Shown here: positions 24,432-61,600 of the stretch, in pieces
Layout: each line of letters opens with the position of its first letter
Position numbering within the stretch: the first letter of the stretch is position 1
Source of the DNA: Eledone cirrhosa
Taxonomy: Eukaryota
Direction of reading: 5' to 3'
DNA length: 64,000 bases
NCBI GenBank assembly: GCA_964016885.1
Contig: OZ024747.1
Location: 36,084,001-36,148,000 of the forward strand
Notes under the pieces: model-generated
Told to the model about the DNA's origin: nothing
The model's input: the letters and a program-made list of their open reading frames with translations, nothing else
Database searches by the model: none
Translations under genes and position numbers: made by a program

Positions 24432-24873
24432 TAGAAATGTAAGCTATCGCCGTATATTGACTAAATAAATTAAATCAATTATTTAGCCTGATAGTATGGT
24501 CAAGAACCCTCAGAGAAACGGAAAAAGATGAGTATTGACGTACATGGGAGTCGAACCCACATCTTTGATTATCCGGACCACTGAGCTACCATTTACACCA
24601 ACACGTCTTTTTCCATTCAAATTAGAAGCTATAAACTTAGCGACTGTAATGTCAAGTAACAATATTTTCGAAACAGCGAGTTGCTCCGGATAACCAAAGA
24701 TGTGGGTTCGAGTCCCATGTACGTCAATACACATCTTTTTCCATTTCTCTGAGGATTCTTAACCCCACTATCAGGCTAAAAAATTTCTTTAATTTCTTTA
24801 GTCAAAATACGGCGATAGCTTACATTTCTAATAATTTGAAACCAACGCGCTGTTTCGAAAATATTCTTACTTG
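24432..24873. mobile_element. Fold-back element containing a tRNA-like A/B-box segment
   Basis: 24432-24577 is inverted relative to 24685-24830. B box ggttcgagtcc at 24705. Minus strand carries tagctcagtgg (24578-24588) and ggttcgactcc. Confidence 0.75.
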
Positions 24874-28944: not shown

Positions 28945-31900
28945 AGACGTGATTTACTTTGCTCCGGATTTTTACGGATTGTTGTCAAAAAAACTGTGAG
29001 TTTATTGATCAATTTAATAACATTGTTTGGTTTAGCCCCTTGCCTTGGCCGTCAGACGTTAAGTCAACAAATTTTCAATTTTCATCTAAAACTGTAGACT
29101 TGGTGGCAATGGATGCCATTTCCACCTCGCACACTGTCGTGAGTGCCACGCCCACTAAGAAAAGTGGTGGAGGGAAGGTAGGAGTACAAAGCTTGCAGCC
29201 GTCCCCCCTCGTATCATCGAAAAACGTGGAAAATATCGAAACCGCGAAACCAAACCCGGTAAATAATACCAGCACCAACAACAAGAACAATGACAACACC
29301 ACAACCAACAACTGCAACAATAGCAACACCAATATTACCAACAGTGACAGTAACAAAAAAGACAACAACACCAAAACAACATTCGCACAGACCGTAAAAA
29401 AAAACGAACTATACACGCCAATAGACATAACAAATGCTAAACAACTATTACAAGATGCAAAACAATTCGTGACTTTTGGCGAAAACGGTACTTTTAGCAT
29501 CAATTCTCCACAGGAATTACGTAGAGAGGCTGTCCTGAAAACTGTGGTTGTCAGCACAATATCGAACGAAACAAGAAAACCAGCTCAATTATCACAAAAT
29601 GAAATTGGGGTTCTAAAAGATGCAATGAAGGACTTTACCTTCATACAAAAAGGTAAACTGTTTGGTAGCATTTCGGGGGTAATGAACAACCAGTCAAGAG
29701 CTCAAAAGTACTCGGTAGCACCCATTGTGTCCCCCCGCTTCACCTTTTACAGGGGAAAAAGGACACAAAGAATAAAAATAATGAGTATCACACCAAATGT
29801 AAATATTTGGTGGATACTATGTGGAATAATTAACTTTGACGAAGACAAGATAATAAGATAATTTCAATAGGAAAGTCCTCCGGAGGTGTATTTGGTGGGA
29901 CCAACGTAGAAGTTCTGGTGCAAATGAGCCCAGAACGAATAGCGAATATCCCACAACGCGTGCCTCTAGACGGGATAACTTATATAAACATTTCAGTGGA
30001 GGGAAGGCGACCGTCATGTTACCACTGCTTAAGCAGGGGTCACCTGAGGGCTGCCTGTCTTCAATTAACGAGTAAAAAAAAAAGGCTCTTCTGCCAACCC
30101 CGAACACAACAACACAACCACCACCACCACCACCACCACAACAACACGGAAAAATAACAACACAAAACACTGTTCCACCCAACCCCTCCCCACCTAAAAC
30201 AAATACAAAATCAACCACAACAAAACCCCAAAATATACCCCTTCCCAACAACACGGAAGAGGACTCCGTATCAACGTCACCCAGTGACGACGAGGGAGAA
30301 CCCTTTCAACAGGTGAAAAGGAAAAAAAAAGGCACCACATTAACAAAAATGCCACAAACACACAACCACCAGCACAAACAGAACAAACATCACAAATAAA
30401 AAAAACCAACCCTCCCCAAAACATAACACGTACTACAAAACGCAAACACGCATAAGAACAACAAACAAAAACAAACACAACACAACAAAAACTCTATACA
30501 TACATTAACAAGAACAATAAAACGTTGATGAAAGCGATAGAAAATTACCCTTCGGTGGAAAGCGAAGGGATCACTTTCACCTACGCAGCGAACAAACTGC
30601 ACCTAATGATGATTAGGGTCCCAACGGAAACCTATGTAACTTTGAAAAAGAACCATCCAATGCATGTGGGGACCAACTGCACCAAACCACATAACAGCGT
30701 CCTATTGAGATGTTTCCCCACCCCCACACCAGACACCCACACCCCACCAAACACCCTAATCCCACCACACACTGATGTCCTCACCCCACCACAAACCACC
30801 ACGCCACCAAACAACACTTCCAACACCCCCATGGAAATTGTGCAGCCTGGTCCCCAGGAAACGAAGAGGTAAGTAATTTCCTTTCCTCTTCCTTTTTACC
30901 TCTTCAGCACCAACATGGCCAATATAAGAGTTGGATGTGTGAATGCACGCGGCTTGGGGATGTCCTGGAACCAGGGCATATTCTTAAATGACCTCAGGTC
31001 GCACAGAGTGGATGTACTGGTTATTTGCGAGTCCAGGATCAGCAGCGAGCGCCAACTGGCCCCCATCTTCGACGACTTTGAGATCTACGCATCTCTCTGT
31101 CAGCCGAGGGGTGGGGTTGTCGTTCTGCTGCGAAAATACCTGGGTCTTGCCACACAGAAGGTACACCTGGACCCGGAGGGTCGACTGGTGGTTTTAGACG
31201 TCGGCAGTAGTGAAGGTGGAGCTTTCAGGCTGGTGGCAGCGTATTCCCCATCTGGGACACCACGACCGGACTTCTTCCGATGCCTGAAGAATTTCCTGGG
31301 AACGTCTCGCTCCTTGCTTTTAGTGGGGGACTGGAATGGTATCCTGGATGCACGTTGGGACTATGTAGGGGCATGTCCCGATAGAGGGGGGTGTAACAGC
31401 CTCAAACGATTAATGGGCCGATTTGATCTGGCCGATAGATATCGACTAGATTTTCCGACTGTGCCACGGTGGACGTGGAGTAATAGCAGCGGAACATCTA
31501 GGTCGTACCTAGATAGGTTCCTAGTTAGAAATAAGGATAGGGACATATTAAGCTGTCCACTAATGTTCATGGTTGACTATTCGGATCACAAGTTGGTGAC
31601 CGGAGTGGTCAACCTTGATAGAACTCATAGACAGGGACCCGGTTACTGGAAGCTAAACTTGTTTTTACCGACAAACAAAGCTTACAGTAAGCGGATTAGC
31701 ACACTAGTTAAGCAGCGTTTGACGGGGGCAATTGTCAACAACAGGTGGTGGGGCTCTCTCAAGAGAGAAATTAGAATAGAATCGATAGGTTTTAGTCGGG
31801 AATTAGCATCAGATAGGAATAGAACTGAAAGGGAATTAACAAATAGAATAGAAGAGGTGATTAGGAGTGGCAACGTGACCGGCGTGCTGGCGTCAAGAAC

Positions 31901-34440
31901 GGCCCTAGACCAGTTCTTTGATGCGAAGCACGAGGGCTGCGTTGTCAGGAGTAAAATACGTACTATGGGTAACGAGGGAGCCAAAGCTGTTAGCTGGGCC
32001 CGAGTGACAGAGGCAAAAAGTGGAAACAAGTTCACGATTCGGTCTTTGAAGGACCAGGATGGACGCGTGATCCTTGAACCTGAGCGGATGAGCGCGGCCT
32101 TTCAACGGCGCTTTGCACGGCTGTTCGGGAGGGGCGGCGGGACGGGTGGGGCCATGGATTTCGGTCCATACCTCGACGGTCTGGCGCGGCTCTCGGACGG
32201 GGAGGCGAAGTCCTGCGAGAGGCCGATTTTAGCCGCTGAAATAGGGGAGGCGCTGAGCCAATGCGGCAAACGCAAAACTCCGGGTCTCGATGGTCTACCA
32301 TACGAACTTTATGTAGCGATGCCGGGCTTGTTCTCCGGTCTCTTCGAGGTGGTCTACTGCAACTGGCAACAGAACGGGAGAATTCCCAGTTCTGTGACCA
32401 AGGGCGTAGTCACGCTGGTGAGGAAGGACGAGAATAAGGGGGATGACATAGATAACTTCAGGCCCATAACTCTGCTAAACACAGAGTTAAAGATTTTGGC
32501 CAAGGTGTTAGCGAAGAGGTTGGCGCTTGTCGTCGGGAACCTGGTGGGAGAAGCGCAGACATGCGCAATCCCGTCCAGGTCCATACACGACAATCTCCAC
32601 CTCATGCGATACATCGTAGAGAGGGTAGGGAACGAACCCGGCTTTGGTGGGGCCCTGATCAACTTGGATCAATCTAAAGCGTTCGATAGGGTTGACCATC
32701 GGTACCTGGATGCGGTGCTCGCGACGGCAGGCTTCGGACCCGTTTTCAGGGGATGGATTGCTGCAATGCGCAGCAGCAACACCTGCTCGAGGGTCAAGGT
32801 GAACGGCTACCTCTCGGAGCCATTCCAAATCGCGCGATCCTTTCGACAGGGATGCCCTCTCTCCTCCCTCCTGTATGTGCTGGCTCTCGAGCTACTACTG
32901 AGGAAGCTGGAGCTGTTGCAGGGCATCCCCTTGGAACCGGGATTGCGGAAAGCGGTGTCGGCCTACGCCGATGCCCTCCGACGGCATCGTCGGACGCTGG
33001 ACGGAGGGACCGGTGAAGCTGCTCGGGGTCTGGTTCGGACCGGACCTCCAGGTGGAGAAAAACTGGGACGAGGTAACGGGCAAGGTGTTTGCACTCGCCC
33101 AGAAGTGGGCCGAGTGCAAACTATCCCTGAAAGGTCGAGCGGAGGTGGCGAACGCTTATATAGCGTCCGTCATCTACTACCGCTTGACAGTCGTGCTTTG
33201 CCCAGAGAAAACACTCACCAAAATGGAGCGCGCGCTCTTCCGATTTCTTTGGAAGAAGCGGGCTCCTTTGGTGAGAAGATCCATCTGCTGTCAACACCCT
33301 TCGAACGGAGGGCTGGGGATGCCGTGGCTGACGATGCGTAGACACGCATTAAGGCTACGGCACCTCCAGGTATTCCTCACCGGTCAGCCGGTGTGGGCCC
33401 TGCTTGTGAGGCGAGCCTTTCCGAGACTCGTCTCACTCAACAAGCTGCAATCCTGTGTCAAGCAAAGACCGAGAAAAGTGGGCGACTGGCACATTGAATG
33501 AGCCCAGGCGCTTAGGCCCTCTGGCAAGCGGATCCGGCAATCAGTGGAGACTCAACCTCAACATTCTATAGAGGGTTGGTGCGAGGTAAGTGCGACGACG
33601 CTCTCGGAGAGGCTCTAGGCATGGAGGAAAACGAGCTGGCCAGTCTGTTCGGTAGGACGTTTGGCCCGGGACCGATGGACAACTTCCAAAAGTCCCTGGC
33701 TTGGCAATGTTACCGAGGAGCTCTACCCGTTCAGGACAAGCTCTACAGACACGGGCGCCCGGGTAGGGACTCCTCGAAGAAGATCTGTCCAAGAACCGTC
33801 GCACACGCATTCGTACAATGACCGGGCGTTGCTGACCTGTGGGGCTATGTAGAACGACTACTGTCGCGGGTGGGACTAATCCGGTTGACCACCGAGAACA
33901 TTGTCACAATCAAACCGCCTCCCCCTTTCAAAAACGAAGGAGAGGCGGTTTTCCTCTGTGTGATAGCCATGGCGAAAGAAGTTGTATGGTGGACAAGGTT
34001 GAAAGGGCTGAGGTCAGACACCTATCTCTCCGGCCAACAACTGGTCTTTTTTTTCAAGTACCACTTTAGAAGAAGGATCAGAATGGAGAGAGAGGTGCTC
34101 TACCCCAGCAAGTTTTATGAAAGATGGGTGAAAGTAGCGAGAATGGCCCGAGTGAATGGGCCTTCTCTCTATATCAGCCTGTAGGTGAGAGAGGAGAAGA
34201 ATGAGAAGAGGAAGGAAGCACCCGCTCTTTGTGCTCCTGAAGAGGAGGGTTGCACATTTTTTTTTTTTGGGGGGGGGGGGGGGGCGACCCATGTCAACGC
34301 CCCTCCCTATTGAGAACATCGATTGTTAAATTTAATTTGTTATATGTTTTTTACACGTCCTTTTAAATGTATGTAAACTCCCCCCTTTGTATTTGTCCCA
34401 ATCTTTGATGTCCTGGTGGCAAATAAAAAGAAATATATAT
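28945..34440 (+). mobile_element. Near full-length Tx1/L1-clade LINE (frameshifted)
   Basis: ORF1 pieces 28959-29861, 29918-30157 (CYHCLSRGHLRAAC), 30525-30872. ORF2 from 30915: APE (GCVNARGL..GDWN..YLDRF..YSDH), RT (KTPGLDGLP..NFRPITLLN..LDQSKAFDRV..RQGCPLS..SAYAD), deletion at ~32972, C-terminal pieces to 34184. 3' ggcaaataaaaag. Confidence 0.93.
30915..32973 (+). pseudogene. Tx1-like ORF2, uninterrupted endonuclease-RT segment up to the truncated YAD(D) motif
   Basis: ORF track 30915..33341; LINE homology in this frame ends after AVSAYAD. Confidence 0.85.
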
Positions 34441-47424: not shown

Positions 47425-48067
47425 GTGTTTTGCAACGGGTCACTTTGTGGCTGAATGAAAAATTAATAAATTAAATAATCAGAGCTATATATCATAAAAA
47501 TTGTCTATAGAATCACCAGATAAAATATATACCATTTCCTCTCCCAATGAGATACACATTTGGCTGTATTGTGATGCGCTTTCTAGCAAAAAAGCCGCCA
47601 GCCGTAAGCAAATAACCACATTCCTTCTAACCTGACCGCTGCTACGTCACGATTCTTAGCCATTTTTGAATGTATTCTTGGCGGAATCACTTGGGAAAAT
47701 GTATTGTCTAAATTTGAGCTAACTTCCTGAAGAGTCCTGTGCTCAAGGTTCTGAAGCTATCGGATATCTTAAAATGCGGACGAAACCATGGTCGAGGTTA
47801 TTAAATGCGTTCAATTTTCTCCTACTTTATTTTACACCTAATTCTGTTTAATTGACTGTATATATCTGGGCGATTACGCTGTCGAAATATTCGATAAATA
47901 TTCTGTCGTAGCCGGTGCGATGGGCTGGTTTCGGTTATTTGTTGGAGATTTCTTCATAGAAGCCTTATTCTTCTAGCTTGGTCTATTCGATTTTTTATAT
48001 GGCTAATTATGCTAATTGGGAGAGGAAATGGTATATATTTTATCTGGTGATTCTATAGACATGTTTT

Positions 48068-54239: not shown

Positions 54240-56340
54240 ATTGAGATACCTGACAGAATAAAAAAAAAATTATCACCGAGGGTTTAAAATATATTTTACA
54301 GAACAACATTTTTGATTTCGATGGCAGTTCTTACAAGCAAATATCGGGGACTGCCATGGACATGGACACAAAAGTCGCTCCCACTCATGCCAACTTAATC
54401 ATGGCATACTTGGAAGTCCATTTATATGAACTGTCTAAATCAAAATACGGATTGAACTTCCACAAATATTTATCAGAGAATTGGGAACGCTACTTGGATG
54501 ATTGTCTCAATCTTTGGTCTCACACACTCGACCAACTAAATGATTTCAAAAATAACGACATCAATAACCACATCCAATTCAAAATGGAATACAGCCAAGA
54601 TCAACTCCCATTTCTGGACATCTTAATCATAAAACAGGCATAAATATTGAAACTGACATACACTACAAACCAACATACTCCAAACAATAACTGCTATTCA
54701 CCTCCAACCATTCAAAGCACACGAAGACGAACATCCCTTTTAACCTAGCAAGAAGAATTTGCACAATGCTCTCCAATTATGAAATGCGAAATAAAATACT
54801 TCAAGAATTAAAGGAAATTCTACTCGAAAGACAGTACCCACCATTACTAATAAATAATGGATTAGAAAGCGCTAGAGAAATAGGGACTTATGAATTACGA
54901 AAACAAAAACAAATTCAAGGTACGTCCAATATTCTATCATATATCTCAACACACAAGCCAAGAAATACGGAAGCTCACAACACTATTCACAAGAACATCC
55001 CACTATTGAATCAAGACCCAAGAATGAAAAAAAGCCCTTGAAACACACAAAATAATCAAAAGCAAAAGACAACCGAAATCACTAAAAACATTACTCACTA
55101 ATGCCAAATTACCTACCACTAACCCACAACCAACTGTCAACAATTGGTCGCTCTAATTGTGGAACCTGCACTCACCTCATTGAAGGCAACACGTATACAT
55201 TTCGATCAGGACACAATTTTGCTGTAAAAAGTCACTTTACTTGCTCATCAAAAAATCTATTTTATGCCATTAAATGAAAAGGATGCATTGAAGATTATAT
55301 AGGACAAACTAAACTCACACTCAGAAACAGAATGACAGTTCATCGCCAACAATTACGAGACCCTACCAAAAGAAAGCTACCACTCAGTGCACATCTAGAC
55401 ATATGCGCAAATAATAAGTCACCCAAATTCTAAGTCTTCCCATTTTATCTTTGCGCTGACAAAGAACAAATACGAATAAATAAGGAAAATATGTTTATTC
55501 AAAAATATAGACCAGCATTAAATAGAGTTTAAATACACCATAACATACTAACTATCCAAACAGACACATACATACACAGACACATAACACCTTCTATTTT
55601 ATAAAATAAAAACCAGAACTAAATTAACCTCAACATACGTTAATACTCTAACACATTAACATGCTACCCCTCCCCCCCCATACACATAACTCTCTCCCCC
55701 ATTTCTACTAACGGAATCAGTTTCCTACACACACACCAAAAAATATATATTCTCTCCATCTTAATATGCTAACCGTACTCCCACATACACACACACACAC
55801 ACAGAAATAACACCCATACACACACGCACAGAACTCGCTCCTCCATTTCTACTAATAGAATCATCTTCCTATACACACACACAAAAACACACACACACAA
55901 GCACACAAATAAACATACACATCTCTACTTTCTTTATTTGAATAGAAAGTCTGAATGTTGACACCCCGGCACACCAGCTATATTCACTGAACCAGAACAA
56001 TTCTGCCCATCCTGTTTTTCGTGACCATTATCTTTTGTTTTACACAAACGTCTCTAAAAGACTACAAAATACATGACCAAATACGGGCCGAAATTTAATG
56101 TACTTGTTCACGTGACAGTATTAATTTCATTTATAAGCAATAAAATTAAATTTTAGCACAGCAGTCGTGCTCAGAACAACTCTCTCCATCCCTATTTCTT
56201 GACCATTATCTTTTGTTTCGCACAAATTTATTCTCTAAATGGCTACAAAAGCATTCCAAAATAGGGGCGCGAAATTTAATGTAATTGTTCACGGGACAGT
56301 TGTAATTTAATTTATAACCAATCAAAATGACATTTATAAA
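54240..56340 (+). mobile_element. Decayed Penelope-like element (Neptune-like: RT, Cys linker, GIY-YIG)
   Basis: ILQNNIFDF..YKQISGTAM..APTHANL.M..WERYLDD..LPFLDILI..YKPT; GRSNCGTC; NLFYAI..C..DYIGQT..LRNRMTVHR; duplicated 3' end ~56005-56155 / ~56185-56340. Confidence 0.85.
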
Positions 56341-57108
56341 AAAAAAACCTTTGTGAGCCGCCTTTTTTTAAAGTAAAAAGAAATTGAATCACATACTGGC
56401 GCGAAAGCTGATGTGCTTATTCATGTGGCTGCATCAACCAACCAAACTTCACTCATATATGAAAAAAAAAAACCTGAGCCCCCCCCCCCCCCGTGTTTGA
56501 AGGCAAATATAATAAGAGATTTGTAACGGAAACTGACGCGAAATCTATTATACTTATTCACCAATCAACCAAGTTACTTCCCTAAAAACCTAGCATTTCG
56601 GGGTATTATTTTCCATATAAAACAGAAGTAACATTCAAAGACCAACCGGATGTGAGAAAAACCACAAACCCTCCATCCCAATACTACTTTTGAAAAGCAG
56701 AAGAACTGCGAAATCGGTAAAGGAAACAAATAAATATATATTTAAAAAAAGAAGACTCCAGTTGCATTTTCGATTTTATCTTTTTCCTTATACTTTCACT
56801 CGTGTAGGACACCTAGTTTTTCTTCCATTTTGTAAAAAACCTCACTTTCCAATATATATATATATATATACAATATATAGAAACACACAGATACATGCGG
56901 ACACATATATATACATGAATATATCCACATATATCTTTGAATTAAGGTGCCAACCTCAACCGATGTTGCTCTATGAATAACTGGGACAAAATAATCCGAA
57001 TGGATTAGATTGATTCAGTATCAGAGCTATATAATACATTATGAAGAGAGAAGAAACATTATATATAATTAATAATAAGATATATCATACCCAAAGTCCT
57101 TCTTTACT

Positions 57109-57199
57109 CCTCGACTACGTAGTTTCGTGGCATATTATGCAAAAACACTACATCACAGAGATATAGAATTTTTGTGAGGTCTGCCGACTTATCAAGAGG
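57109..57199 (-). ncRNA. Type I hammerhead, family M (U3-A8 core)
   Basis: Minus strand: cctc-TTGATAA-gtcggca...tgccac-GAAA-ctacgtag-TC-gagg. Confidence 0.75.
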
Positions 57200-57502
57200 A
57201 TACCTAATTAAGAGTTTCAAAACACGTCCACAGGACGCGAAATAGAATCCTGAAAGGCGGAGGGGGAGTCAATCACGTGATACAGCGGTCAAGAAACAGA
57301 GCTAAGCCTCTTATAACCATGAAAAACATAAAACGGAGGCTTTGATATAAGTACCCCCTCAGCCTCCGTGGTATTTTGTTCAGGGTTATAAGAGGCTTAG
57401 CTCTGTTTCTTGACCGCTGTATCACGTAATTGACTCCCCCTCCGCCTTTTGGGATTCTATTTCGCGTCCTACGGACGTGTTTTGGAACTCTTAATGAGGT
57501 GT

Positions 57503-57593
57503 CCTCTTCATAAGTCGGCAGACCTCAACAAAATTCTATATCTCTGTGATGTAGTGTTTTTGTATAATATGCCACGAAACTACGTAGTCGAGG
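57503..57593 (+). ncRNA. Type I hammerhead, family M (G5C-mutated copy)
   Basis: cctc-TTCATAA-gtcggca...tgccac-GAAA-ctacgtag-TC-gagg. Confidence 0.6.
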
Positions 57594-58093
57594 AGTAAAG
57601 AAGGAGTTTGCGTATGATATATCTTATTATTAATTATATCTAATGCTTCTTATCTCTTCATAATGTATTATATAGCTCTGATACTGAATCAATCTAATCC
57701 ATTCAGATTATTTTGTCCCAGTTATTCATAGAGCAACATCGGTTGAGTTTGGCACCACTAATTCAAAGATATATGTGAATATATTCATGTATATGTATGT
57801 GTCCGCATGTATCTGTGTGTTTCTATATATTTTGTATAACTCCCTTTCGTCGAGTAACCTTTGAAGTGTAGTGACTGCTGGAAAGCTATCATTACTCATA
57901 CTTCTCACCACCTTCGCCACCTCTTCTACGGCTTTGATACAAGTACCCCATCCGCCTCCGTCGTATTTTTTCATGGTTATAACAGGCTTAGCTCTGTTTC
58001 TTGGCCGCTGTATCACGTGATTGACTCACACTCCGCCTTTCAAGATTCTATCTCGCGTCCTACGGACGTATTTTGAGACTGTTAATGAGGTAT

Positions 58094-58184
58094 CATCTTG
58101 ATAAGTCGGCAGACCTCACAAACATTCTATATCTCTGTCATGTAGTGTTTTTGCATAATATGCCACGAAACTATGTAGTCGAGG
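58094..58184 (+). ncRNA. Type I hammerhead, family M (U3-A8 core)
   Basis: catc-TTGATAA-gtcggca...tgccac-GAAA-ctatgtag-TC-gagg. Confidence 0.7.
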
Positions 58185-58259
58185 AGTAAAGAAGGAGTTT
58201 GGGTATGATATATCTTATTAGTAATTATATCTAATGTTTCTTCTCTCTTCATAATGTAT

Positions 58260-58384
58260 TATATATATATATAATATATATATAATATATATATAATATA
58301 TATATAATATATATATATAATATATATATAATATATATATATAATATATATATAATATATATATATAATATATATATATAATAT

Positions 58385-58416
<32 letters not shown>

Positions 58417-58581
58417 ATATATATATATATAATATAATATATATATATAATATATATATAATATATATAATATATATATAATATATATATATAATATATA
58501 TATAATATATATATATATAATATATATATATATAATATATATATATATAATATATATATACATATAATATATATATATATA

Positions 58582-58622
<41 letters not shown>
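58260..58622. repeat. (TA)n/(TAA) compound microsatellite
   Basis: Direct reading. Confidence 0.95.
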
Positions 58623-58624
<2 letters not shown>

Positions 58625-61600
58625 TCTTCTATAGTCAAAAGCTAGCTAAACTGAAGAGGTACCAGCCTGCCCGCCCAGCCAGTGGGATGCCGTCATCTTA
58701 TGAAGAAAAGGGCCTCAGTACCCTGCGCGTCAATCGGGCCACCCCATGACGGCGGAGTGCAACCCGAGCGACGAGAGGCTGCTAAGAATCGCAGGTTCCC
58801 GAAGTCCGCCAAGGAACAGGACAAACCTTGCCATATGCACCTACAACTGCAGGTCTTTGGAAGGGGGCAATGGCTGAACCACCTAATGGAGGAGAAGAAG
58901 AAGATCAGATGCGACCTGTTAGGGCTGTGCGAGACCCGCCAGAAGAAGGAGGCGAGTTCACGATGGCAAGATGGATGCGCCTTGAGACTCGGGAAAGAAG
59001 AGGGTGCCAGATCGGTCGGAGGTATACAGTTCATCGTAAGCAAGGAATGGACTTGGAAGGTCGCTTCTTGCCAGTTCATATCGTCACGGATTGGTGTACT
59101 GAACGTGAACTATCTCAGGGAAAGCCACCCTCAAGATCGTCCAGTCCTACGCTCCCACAAGTACCAGCGACGACGATGAGGTGGTAGAATGCTATCGCCA
59201 GCTAGTCAAAGGGCAAGTTGTGAAGTCCACGTACACTGTCGTGATGGGAGACTTCAACGCAAAGGTCGGACAGGGACAACAAGGGGAAGAGTGTGTCAGA
59301 AGATTCGGCCTAGGAGAGCGAAATAAGAGAGCAGAGCGTCTGGGCACCATGACGGAGGAGGGACGGCTCTACATCGGAAACAGCCTATTCAGGAAGAAGA
59401 AGGAGAAGCGATGGACCTGGGTATCGCCAAATTCTGAGCAACGAAACGAGATTGACTACATATTGGTAGACAATCGACGCATACTACAGGGCGTCTCCGT
59501 CATAACGCCATGCAACACTGGAAGTGATCATCGTCTGGTGAGGGCGAGGGTCGTCATCGACCGGAAGAGGGAGAAGAAGGCGCTGCATTTCGTGTCGAAA
59601 GAAGAACGCGCCGGGTCTTCAATGAGGCGCAGCTGCAGGAAGCCATTATGCAGGAAAAGTGGTGTCAAGGAGACGGCATATACGCTGAATACGACTCACT
59701 GATAGGGAAACTGAAGGAGTGCTTGAGGAAGGCTAAGGGTGTGTGCCGGAGGGATCGGAAGGGAAGAGTCTCGGGGGAAACTATGAAGTTGCTTAAGAAG
59801 AGGAAGAATATGAAGAGGACACCTGAAGATCACTTCGAATATTCCCTTCTCAGCAGAGTGATAAGTCAACAACTGAAGAGAGACTTCGAGGCATACCGGA
59901 TGGCGAAGCTCCTGAAGGCCGCATAGGAAAAGAAGAGCCTCAATAAATGCGAGAGGGATATGAAAATGTACAGATCGGAGGTGACGACCCTAAAAAACAC
60001 AGCTGGAATACCGGTCAGCGACAAGAGTGAGGTGGAAAATGTTTGCGAAGACTTCTACACCAAGCTCTTCAAGTCTGCCGGGAAAGTGCAGCTGTTGTCG
60101 TCACTCCAACAGGAAGAAAATGTGCCACCCTTCCTTGTCGGTGAGGTTGAAAGAGCCGTCGGCTTGATGAAAAGCGGAAGGGCACCAGGGAAAGACGGCA
60201 TAACATCGGAGGTGTTGAAGTCGGGCGGAGTGTAGCTCTGGAAAATCCTCGCCGAGCGATTCATACACTATCTGGACAAGGGAAGAATACCCTCACAGTA
60301 GAAAGAGTCGAATACGATCCTGCTATACAAGGCGGGCGATAGAGAAGATCTGAAGAACTACCGACCCATATGCCTGCTGTCTCACGTGTACGAGCTGTTC
60401 ACGAAGATAATCCTGAACAGGTTATCACGTCATCTAGATGAACAGCAACCGAGAGAGCAAGCCGGCTTCCGGAAAAACTACAGCACGATGGACCACATAT
60501 TTACTCTGACAAACTGCTTGAGCGAGCAAAAGAGTACAAGATGCTTCTTTGCGCCGCGTTCGTAGACTACGAGAAGGCCTTCGACAGCGTCGAAATCAAA
60601 TTAGGGCTGAACTCGCTGCAGAGTCAAGGAGTCAAGGCGCAATACGTTCTACTGCTCGGGAAGGCGAGTACTGGATGCACCACCGACATAGCTCTGCAGT
60701 TATCACCCATACCAGTGCTGGTCGAGAAGGGAGTGAAGCAAGGAGATGCGATCTCCCCAAAACTTTTCACAGTGTGTTTCGAGCAGATCAACAGAGGCAT
60801 TGATTGGCAAGGCGGTGTCAACATCAACGGCGAGTTACTTACCTCCCTCCGTTTCGCTGATGACATCGTACTCATCGCTGAAACCACGGATCATCTTCAG
60901 ACCATGCTGATGGAGTTCGACATCAAAAGCTCTGCAGTAGGCCTCAAGATGAACCGCATGAAAACGAAGTTCATGCAGTCCAACAACGTACCCACAAGTC
61001 GAGTAGTGGTTGGCGGTGATGAAATAGTGGAGGTGGAGGAATACGTCTACCTGGGACAAGGAAGTGAACATGCGCCGAGACATTGAGAGGGAGATCTCGC
61101 GGAGAGTAAGAGCCGGATGGAAGGCGTTCAATGGCATAAGGGATGTGCTCAAGGGGAAGTTGGACAAGACCACCCGCGCCAACTTCTTCAATAGCACAGT
61201 TTTACCTGCAATGTTTAATGGCAGTGAAACTTGGGCTACAATGTAGAGAGAAGAGCAGAGGCAGGTAACGGCTCAAAGAGCCATGGAGAGATCAATGCTA
61301 GGAATCTCTTTGACAGAGCACATCAGGAGCGAATTCATCAGACATAAGTCTGGCGTGAGGGACGTCAACAAGAAATATATGCGAAGCAAGTTCAGATTGG
61401 CTGGACACGTCGCCCGGTTCACCGATAATCTGAGGACCCGCGCAGTTGCCGAGTGGTACCCGCGCGAGCGGAAACGACTACTCGGAAGGCCTCCACGAGG
61501 GTGGAGTTACGATTTTAAGAATACGATTGGGAATACATGGATGAGTAAAGCACGACCCAGAGAGGAATGGACGGCGCGCTGTGACCAGCGGCGCTGAATG

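Follow-up and report, generated by a model that had tools for sequence, protein, structure and literature searches.

A 591-nt hammerhead retrozyme of Eledone cirrhosa whose insertions point to copying of a single monomer from two priming sites by Penelope-like machinery

Background

The genome of Eledone cirrhosa harbors a family of non-coding retrozymes with a unit of about 591 nt, which are probably mobilised by Neptune-like Penelope-like elements (PLEs), each insertion likely having been copied from one circular monomer, with priming by the two nicked strands of a (TA)n target and with A>G changes in the template that were probably made by ADAR. We further suggest, tentatively, that an insertion may be the DNA record of one ADAR-edited circle read simultaneously by the two RTs of a PLE dimer, each using its own fixed site on its own strand, in which case editing would enter the germline and steer the evolution of the family (A-U to G-U to G-C pairs, GC from 38% to 43%).

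The retrozyme class and the U3-A8 variant of the hammerhead ribozyme (HHR) core are both already known. Circular RNA intermediates and mobilisation by PLEs have been proposed for metazoan retrozymes (PMC7229834; 10.64898/2026.07.22.740005), and Li 2026 (10.64898/2026.07.22.740005) argued for a non-autonomous origin of animal retrozymes from PLEs and observed cleavage in 1 of 9 retrozyme dimers. According to Craig 2021 (10.1101/2021.04.23.441226), PLE insertions can be partial tandems and can have an inverted head, and one of their ends carries a tail of 30-40 bp; in vitro, this tail corresponded to the interval from one internal RT start site to the other, both target strands being cut and extended (Frangieh 2024, PMC11167929). 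In the same system HHR cleavage was not needed and no reads ended at the HHR site. The origin of the tandem and inverted insertions of PLEs and the role of HHRs and circles are debated, circles having been proposed in 2014 and cleavage found dispensable in vitro in 2024.

Structure of the copy in the window

The window is a stretch of 64,000 nt of the E. cirrhosa assembly GCA_964016885.1 (contig OZ024747.1, positions 36,084,001 to 36,148,000). The features of the retrozyme copy that it carries, and of the PLE copy beside it, are listed in Table 1.

Table 1. Features of the retrozyme copy and the adjoining PLE copy (positions in the window)
Feature	Position	Strand	Description
PLE family A copy, 5'-truncated	54242..56858	+	RT and C-terminal GIY-YIG; 80-85% identical to L096/L097
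HHR of family A copy	56690..56719	+	U3-A8, UUGAAAA; decayed helix III AUCGGU for ACCGGU
(TA)n, left target half	56850..56870	.	doubles as 3' end of the older PLE copy
Whole element	56865-58265		two arms, 476-nt inverted and 928-nt direct, (TA)n on both flanks
Inverted arm	56865..57340	-	476 nt; matches L001 986-1461
Intact type I HHR	57108..57200	-	core 57195-57189; GUC cut at 57113 (minus strand)
Inversion junction	57338..57340	.	3-nt overlap of arms (microhomology)
Direct arm	57338..58265	+	928 nt, 1.57 units
HHR copy, decayed core UUCAUAA (G5C)	57502..57594	+	core 57507-57513; cut after 57589
Cut-to-cut full monomer	57590..58180	+	591 nt, 38% GC, no long ORF
HHR copy, core UUGAUAA	58093..58185	+	core 58098-58104; cut after 58180
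(TA)n-type microsatellite, right target half	58260..58622	.	

The inverted arm is 5'-truncated at unit position 365, and its 3' end is priming site B (about 249 nt past the HHR cut in the unit), abutting (TA)n. The direct arm consists of unit 341-591, one full unit and unit 1-85, and its 3' end, priming site A, also abuts (TA)n. A previous reading made from the sequence only (the sequence-only reading) had described three HHR motifs, every one with U3 and A8 and a GUC cut site, the two plus-strand copies being exactly 591 nt apart and the third lying in an inverted arm, and all of this was recovered. The helices and core that it assigned to all three copies were each found in two: the core UUGAUAA is UUCAUAA in the copy at 57507, and the copy at 58098 departs from both the cctc/gagg stem I, having one mismatch in helix I (UCAUC/GAGGA), and the actacgtagt stem III, its helix III palindrome being broken (ACUAUGUAGU). 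The stem II insert is long, as claimed, at 49-50 nt rather than about 45 nt. Fully intact is one of the three window copies, the inverted one, with helix I UCCUC/GAGGA, the core UUGAUAA (U3, A8), GAAA, a bulged helix II with the long insert and the palindromic helix III ACUACGUAGU. Since its own repeats diverge by 6-7%, the window copy is old.

The absence of an ORF and the escape of the family from canonical searches had likewise been stated correctly. The longest ATG-initiated ORF of the circularised window unit has 34 aa in sense and 82 aa in antisense, and Rfam at the gathering threshold found no HHR in the window, its sole match being tRNA-like. Coding potential and the status of an autonomous PLE were rejected, the circle having no ORF with RT and GIY-YIG and none above 99 codons from stop to stop.

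Several other features were noted in the window. The tRNA-like match (24536-24607, minus strand, 35.4 bits, several mismatched pairs) is probably the head of a tRNA-derived SINE. LINE remnants occur at 30873-33341 (plus strand; an 822-aa frame with endonuclease and RT) and, to the right of the element, as ORF pieces at 58655-61086 (plus strand) that look RTE-like. At 47727-47800 (plus strand) lies a separate canonical type I HHR with CUGAAGA, a 7-bp helix I, the palindromic helix III ACCAUGGU and GUC; as a relative is present in L079, it probably belongs to another HHR repeat family.

Abundance, subfamilies and conservation of the hammerhead

A search of the 3.0 Gb genome with a 19-letter HHR pattern, in which positions 3 and 8 were left free, returned at least 6,203 matches against 0 for the reversed control, so the pattern does not arise by chance. 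A DNA search with the element yielded 2,187 candidates; 40 of them were scored, and 29 distinct loci from this search were examined. The discovery set consisted of 40 of the first 55 insertions among the HHR-pattern matches listed, with multi-copy loci favoured; at 55 insertions per 100 HHR matches, the genome would contain about 3,400 insertions by extrapolation. For the held-out set an A-end pattern was used, which has 564 matches; the set comprises 80 of the first 100 and is skewed towards young copies on contig C1 that have an A end and a long TA run. The family is scattered over many chromosomes in tandem arrays of non-coding units, each of which has a single type I HHR, and the longest arrays reach at least 5 units per arm. 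It comprises several subfamilies that are up to about 20% apart, the youngest of which has identical copies at separate loci.

The core boxes and helices I-III of a type I HHR are present in the family in the U3-A8 variant. Among 143 HHR copies, 137 have UUGAUAA, 139 GAAA, 141 UC and 131 CUACGUAG; 88 of these copies came from loci picked by the core pattern, and UUGAUAA was found in 49 of the other 55. U3-A8 was present in 99 of 100 copies among the pattern matches listed and U3-G8 in one, so the paired change does extend to other copies. One helix I pair differs among subfamilies (UA 19, UG 4 and CG 4 of 28), which represents one lineage event, and the other pairs of helices I and II are conserved without covariation. 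The HHR persists in subfamilies that differ by about 20%, and the helix I series U-A > U-G > C-G between them looks compensatory.

Folded as a circle, a young copy was more strongly self-paired than its shuffles in sense (z = -4.0) but not in antisense (z = -0.04), and the decayed window copy gave z = -1.8 (25 shuffles each). For the young subfamily, ViennaRNA predicted probabilities of about 0 at equilibrium for both helix I and a dimeric helix III, with helix I held in two alternative hairpins; the duplex of the helix III palindrome was put at -12.9 kcal/mol. With helix I tied up in the predicted fold, cleavage probably needs help, and a dimer assay may require the PLE protein; by the same model the trapping of helix I would keep a circle stable.

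Sequencing runs were also inspected, and among those containing family sequence none is recorded as RNA. X4 and X5, whose kind is unrecorded, each gave one cyclic contig (621 and 620 nt, depth about 8), which is no evidence for circular RNA because tandem DNA gives an identical graph. X1 and X6 contain A- or B-type ends continuing into TA.

The U3-A8 core and the local Penelope-like elements

A GIY-YIG search of the genome gave 10,596 candidates, of which 150 were scored and 45 loci examined. Among them are autonomous PLEs with RT and C-terminal GIY-YIG domains, the two-end pattern described below, (TA)n targets and U3-A8 HHRs. Families A-D appear Neptune-like, as judged from the Cys linker motif described in Craig 2021 (10.1101/2021.04.23.441226) rather than from a tree. 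At L096, family A has an intact 938-aa ORF with RT and GIY-YIG, and at L104 and L107 its arms end one each at about 76 and 143 nt past the cut, leaving a tail of about 66 nt; the first of these ends lies at a distance past the cut similar to that of retrozyme site A.

Families A, D, D2 and L115 carry UUGAnAA (U3-A8) cores and family C the canonical CUGAAGA, and an HHR was not located in family B. As the U3-A8 core occurs in 4 of the 5 PLE families with an HHR located, it was likely inherited from autonomous PLEs. The sequence-only reading had taken U3-A8 to be a double compensatory change and strong evidence of selection for catalysis. The change is neither new nor specific to this family: natural U3-A8 cores and activity in earlier in vitro work were covered by Perreault 2011 (PMC3088659), about 1,300 PLE-linked U3-A8 HHRs were reported from S. 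mansoni by Cervera 2014 (PMC4209133), and the core is common to the local PLE families. As to selection, the comparison of families argues for selection in the PLE lineage instead of the retrozyme family. By itself the core is thus known and of modest interest, and it was the non-autonomous PLE derivation and the two fixed priming sites that had been overlooked. A canonical C3-G8 version with the same helix III has 0 matches genome-wide. A version with a short helix II was considered as the ancestor and rejected, all 3 of its matches being deletion derivatives of the retrozyme family.

When the retrozyme was compared with PLE families A-E in their 3' regions, the only matches were microsatellite-like, and pLTR homology to an autonomous PLE was found at none of the 45 GIY-YIG loci examined (of 150 scored and 10,596 candidates). 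The match 'TTTC..CTTCATAA' in family D2 was rejected as a link to a partner, since it sits upstream of the D2 HHR. That HHR (L071-L114 3' regions) is U3-A8 with a non-standard helix II base (UUGAUAA-U...GCU-GAAA), and the D2 tail holds an internal TA run. In the window, the retrozyme copy is inserted in the terminal (TA)n of the family A copy. Autonomous PLE copies with a retrozyme in their 3'-terminal (TA)n were seen in the left flank of L019, in the right flank of L040 and at window position 56850; with retrozymes in the (TA)n of both the D2 tail and the family A end, PLE ends serve as landing sites.

Insertion ends and priming sites

Arms end at one of two sites, A at about 80-85 nt or B at about 245-249 nt past the cut, each running into (TA)n, and the spacing between them, which is the tail, is about 165 nt. 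Across 120 loci, adjacent arms formed 68 head-to-head pairs, of which 62 were A+B, 1 was A/A, 4 had another end and 1 ran off the fetched stretch; L037, a local duplication, is counted twice in these figures, and L031 and L050, both A+B, are uncounted. In the held-out loci, which were picked for their A end only, B was the end of the partner arm in 40 of 45 cases. The sites are thus nearly strictly one per arm, whereas no strand difference in start site was observed for the PLE in vitro (PMC11167929).

The insertions otherwise have the architecture of PLEs, with a partial tandem, an inverted 5'-truncated arm and two 3' ends. As in EN+ PLEs, the tail is on one end, the targets are AT-rich or microsatellites, and the HHR lies upstream of the priming sites. 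They differ from PLEs in that the retrozyme has no ORF and its tail measures about 165 nt, against 30-40 bp in PLEs and about 66 nt in the local family A.

The 5' ends of arms are spread through the unit: only 6 of 184 lie within 5 nt of the cut (p = 0.16 against uniform) and 15 of 184 within 15 nt (p = 0.09). RT passes the cut site without stopping. Either arm can be the longer one (e.g. 111 against 1,665 nt in L153), and the arms are therefore not copies of each other.

Three further observations concern the ends. In many loci the 5' ends of arms appear to cluster at unit 166-183, the base of a long hairpin before site B, which suggests an RT pause. At the inversion junction of L050 (4305-4365) a 12-nt segment of the unit is repeated in tandem several times, suggesting RT slippage during the joining of the arms. 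At L037 (C1:19618800-19625200) a whole two-arm insertion was later duplicated locally, the two copies being 2,554 nt apart with identical junctions.

Variation within and between insertions and the excess of A>G

The discovery analysis used 38 young loci, BLAST pieces below 95% identity or shorter than 60 nt being removed and only columns covered at least twice being considered. Every repeat of the insertion carried the variant in 91 cases (42 of them spanning both arms), a single repeat in 60 and some of the repeats in 6, and mean divergence was 0.5% within and 1.8% between insertions. The 80 held-out loci yielded 167 all-repeat variants, 99 single-repeat variants and 9 present in some repeats, and alleles found in at least 3 loci were fixed within an insertion in 129 cases and polymorphic in 4. 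These column-wise tests replaced a nearest-neighbour test (43/126), in which truncated segments and young copies of identical sequence were confounding factors. Changes that are present in every repeat of an insertion were in its template.

Such template-borne changes are strand-asymmetric, with an excess of A>G on the sense strand. In the discovery set A>G outnumbered T>C by 47 to 12, lineage markers included, against 6 to 10 among single-repeat changes. On internal branches of the held-out tree, which supplied the polarity, 41 A>G and 20 T>C were counted (expected A>G share 0.38, p = 7.5e-6), and, as recurrent sites make these events non-independent, the distinct sites are given too, at 32 and 20 (p = 8e-4). 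Clades of one insertion gave 12 against 2, and all young loci other than L050 and L051, the two that prompted the idea, gave 26 against 7. The tips of multi-unit loci had 2 A>G and 5 T>C, and single-repeat changes numbered 6 and 15. In a simple held-out column count the bias was weak: the rare fixed sites numbered 13 and 9 (p = 0.08) and the private ones 7 and 6, which is not significant.

Errors of RT are an unlikely source, since errors made in each pass would fall in the single-repeat class. ADAR editing is probably the source of the template A>G changes, as far as can be judged from genomic sequence. The genome contains genes with an adenosine-deaminase domain, and the predicted fold shows more pairing around the A>G sites. 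ADAR disfavours a 5' G and favours a 3' G next to the edited adenosine. At the A>G events a 3' G is enriched (22/58, p = 6e-4); a 5' G occurred in 8/58 (p = 0.2) and at 3/13 of the held-out rare sites, so that its depletion was not replicated. One adenosine-deaminase-domain gene, at L206-L207 (C6:13644405-13646174), is intronless with a 700-aa open frame, the two other loci being multi-exon, and is possibly a retrocopy or an intronless ADAR. Cervera 2020 (PMC7229834), in its accessible text, mentioned RNA editing as no more than a possible cause of the heterogeneity of circular RNAs.

The same bias could also have arisen on circles without ADAR, through purifying selection on stems, which tolerates A-U to G-U and not U>C, together with transcription-coupled asymmetry at source loci or polymerase errors. 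Transcription-coupled strand asymmetry is known from mammalian germline work. Many predicted pairs vary between A-U and G-U or between U-G and C-G, and in one set the internal branches carry more C>T than G>A changes (16 against 3, p = 0.04); selection for changes that G-U pairing tolerates therefore contributes. The neighbour and private-site biases were also not replicated in the held-out column count. Against this account as the whole explanation, A>G exceeds C>T, which produces the same wobble, when each is set against the single-repeat supply (41:20 against 6:18, p = 6e-4; 26:16 against 6:18, p = 0.005). Moreover, A>G changes cluster in single insertions, with 7 in L050, 4 in L051 and 3 in L185, and a given site can change as many as 7 times in the tree, the recurrent unit positions including 132, 277, 357, 395, 436, 490 and 537. 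We consider it unlikely, if still a serious competitor, that ADAR played no part.

The template of an insertion

The pattern of shared variants is consistent with a closed monomer copied repeatedly from two primers into both arms, cleavage and circles being deduced from genomic sequence. A tree of 119 cut-to-cut units clusters by insertion and not by position in the array. The haplotype of L050 occurs 7 times in the assembly, always in that insertion, with 4 occurrences in one arm and 3 in the other, the source locus possibly being absent from the haploid assembly.

A template of uncut linear multimers, with two-site priming by PLE machinery, a vestigial or rarely cutting HHR and repeats homogenised by gene conversion or unequal crossing-over, would agree with the predicted sequestration of helix I and with the read-through at the cut site. 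Uncut RNA was also the main template of an Anolis PLE in vitro, its HHR being protein-assisted (PMC11167929). Against it, the inverted arms of near-identical, very young insertions share their variants, the unit tree has no position-specific clades, and the L050 haplotype fills all 7 repeats of one insertion and occurs nowhere else; the HHR is moreover conserved across distant subfamilies, with a helix I series that looks compensatory. Conversion must be rare, given that single-repeat mutations remain unspread within loci (99 single against 9 partly shared). We therefore judge the uncut multimer improbable.

The bottleneck at the monomer would be explained equally well by a linear cut monomer, with RT jumping from its 5' end to the 3' end of the same or another monomer, and the slight, non-significant excess of 5' ends near the cut (15/184) points in that direction. 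Yet ends are not piled up at the cut, the junction GUC|GAGGA followed by the helix I strand is found in all but a few of the 143 copies, and jumps between molecules would mix haplotypes, whereas one haplotype fills all repeats and both arms. This makes such jumping a quite improbable route. A satellite-like repeat spread by DNA mechanisms with an incidental HHR has next to no probability, for although tandem arrays exist and local amplification was discussed by Li 2026 (10.64898/2026.07.22.740005), it is at odds with the dispersal, the fixed 3' ends with variable 5' truncation, the inverted arms, the (TA)n on both flanks and the strand asymmetry of inherited changes.

Proposed mechanism and relation to known systems

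The reading that we prefer, one circular monomer per insertion, would proceed as follows. Copies reside in (TA)n as partial tandems, often with two head-to-head arms. A read-through transcript with at least two HHRs would be cut at GUC, likely with the aid of a dimeric helix III and protein, and the monomer would be ligated into a circle, some of whose stem adenosines may then be edited by ADAR. A PLE RT/GIY-YIG dimer would nick both target strands, as the end pattern observed here and the data of Frangieh 2024 suggest, site A (about 80 nt past the cut) being primed by one strand and site B (about 245 nt) by the other. Both RTs would run backwards round the same circle and across the ligation junction, producing tandem repeats with shared private letters, and the two cDNAs would be joined at their 5'-truncated ends through short microhomology, or a single arm would survive.

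The family resembles metazoan non-LTR retrozymes in its non-coding tandems with one type I HHR per unit, its thousands of copies, its GC content below 45% and its co-occurrence with PLEs. Its unit of 591 nt is longer than the 170-400 nt of PMC7229834 and falls inside the 51-972 bp range of 10.64898/2026.07.22.740005. Metazoan retrozymes in that literature have canonical HHRs, whereas the core here is U3-A8 with a PLE-type palindromic helix III, and their circles have been shown, whereas the Eledone family is known from genomic DNA. In its short helix I, the bulge in helix II and the palindrome of helix III, the HHR matches those of PLEs, e.g. that of D. virilis. The core covariation is the same as in the U3-A8 variants of PMC3088659 and in the Cercyon min-HHRs of S. 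mansoni (PMC4209133). The present HHR differs from these in a structured helix II insert of about 50 nt and in being part of a non-autonomous element of 591 nt that exceeds 6,000 copies.

The retrozyme literature, in its accessible parts (PMC7229834, 10.64898/2026.07.22.740005), mentions neither inverted arms nor two priming sites nor (TA)n targeting. Likewise, the papers found on retrozymes and hammerheads, on retrozymes with ADAR, on the retrotransposition of edited RNA and on twin priming or circles of Penelope, most of them covered through their abstracts, describe no one-site-per-arm priming, no haplotypes shared across arms and no inherited A>G edits in a retrozyme.

Conclusions

The proposal of a 591-nt monomeric, retrozyme-type family has been borne out by its thousands of copies, by the monomer as the unit of inheritance and by the helix I series between subfamilies, whose GC content ranges from 38% up to 43%. 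In a family that is young and abundant, private letters work as barcodes for monomer copying and for the priming site of each arm, and it is the anatomy of the insertions, rather than co-occurrence, that ties retrozymes to the PLE machinery. The unit also offers a short non-coding substrate for in vitro tests of PLEs. If the A>G changes are the work of ADAR, the family would be a natural case of RNA edits turned into heritable DNA changes, and if the tentative reading of an edited circle is true, its insertions would provide the first genome-scale readout of the mechanism by which Penelope tandems and inversions are made.
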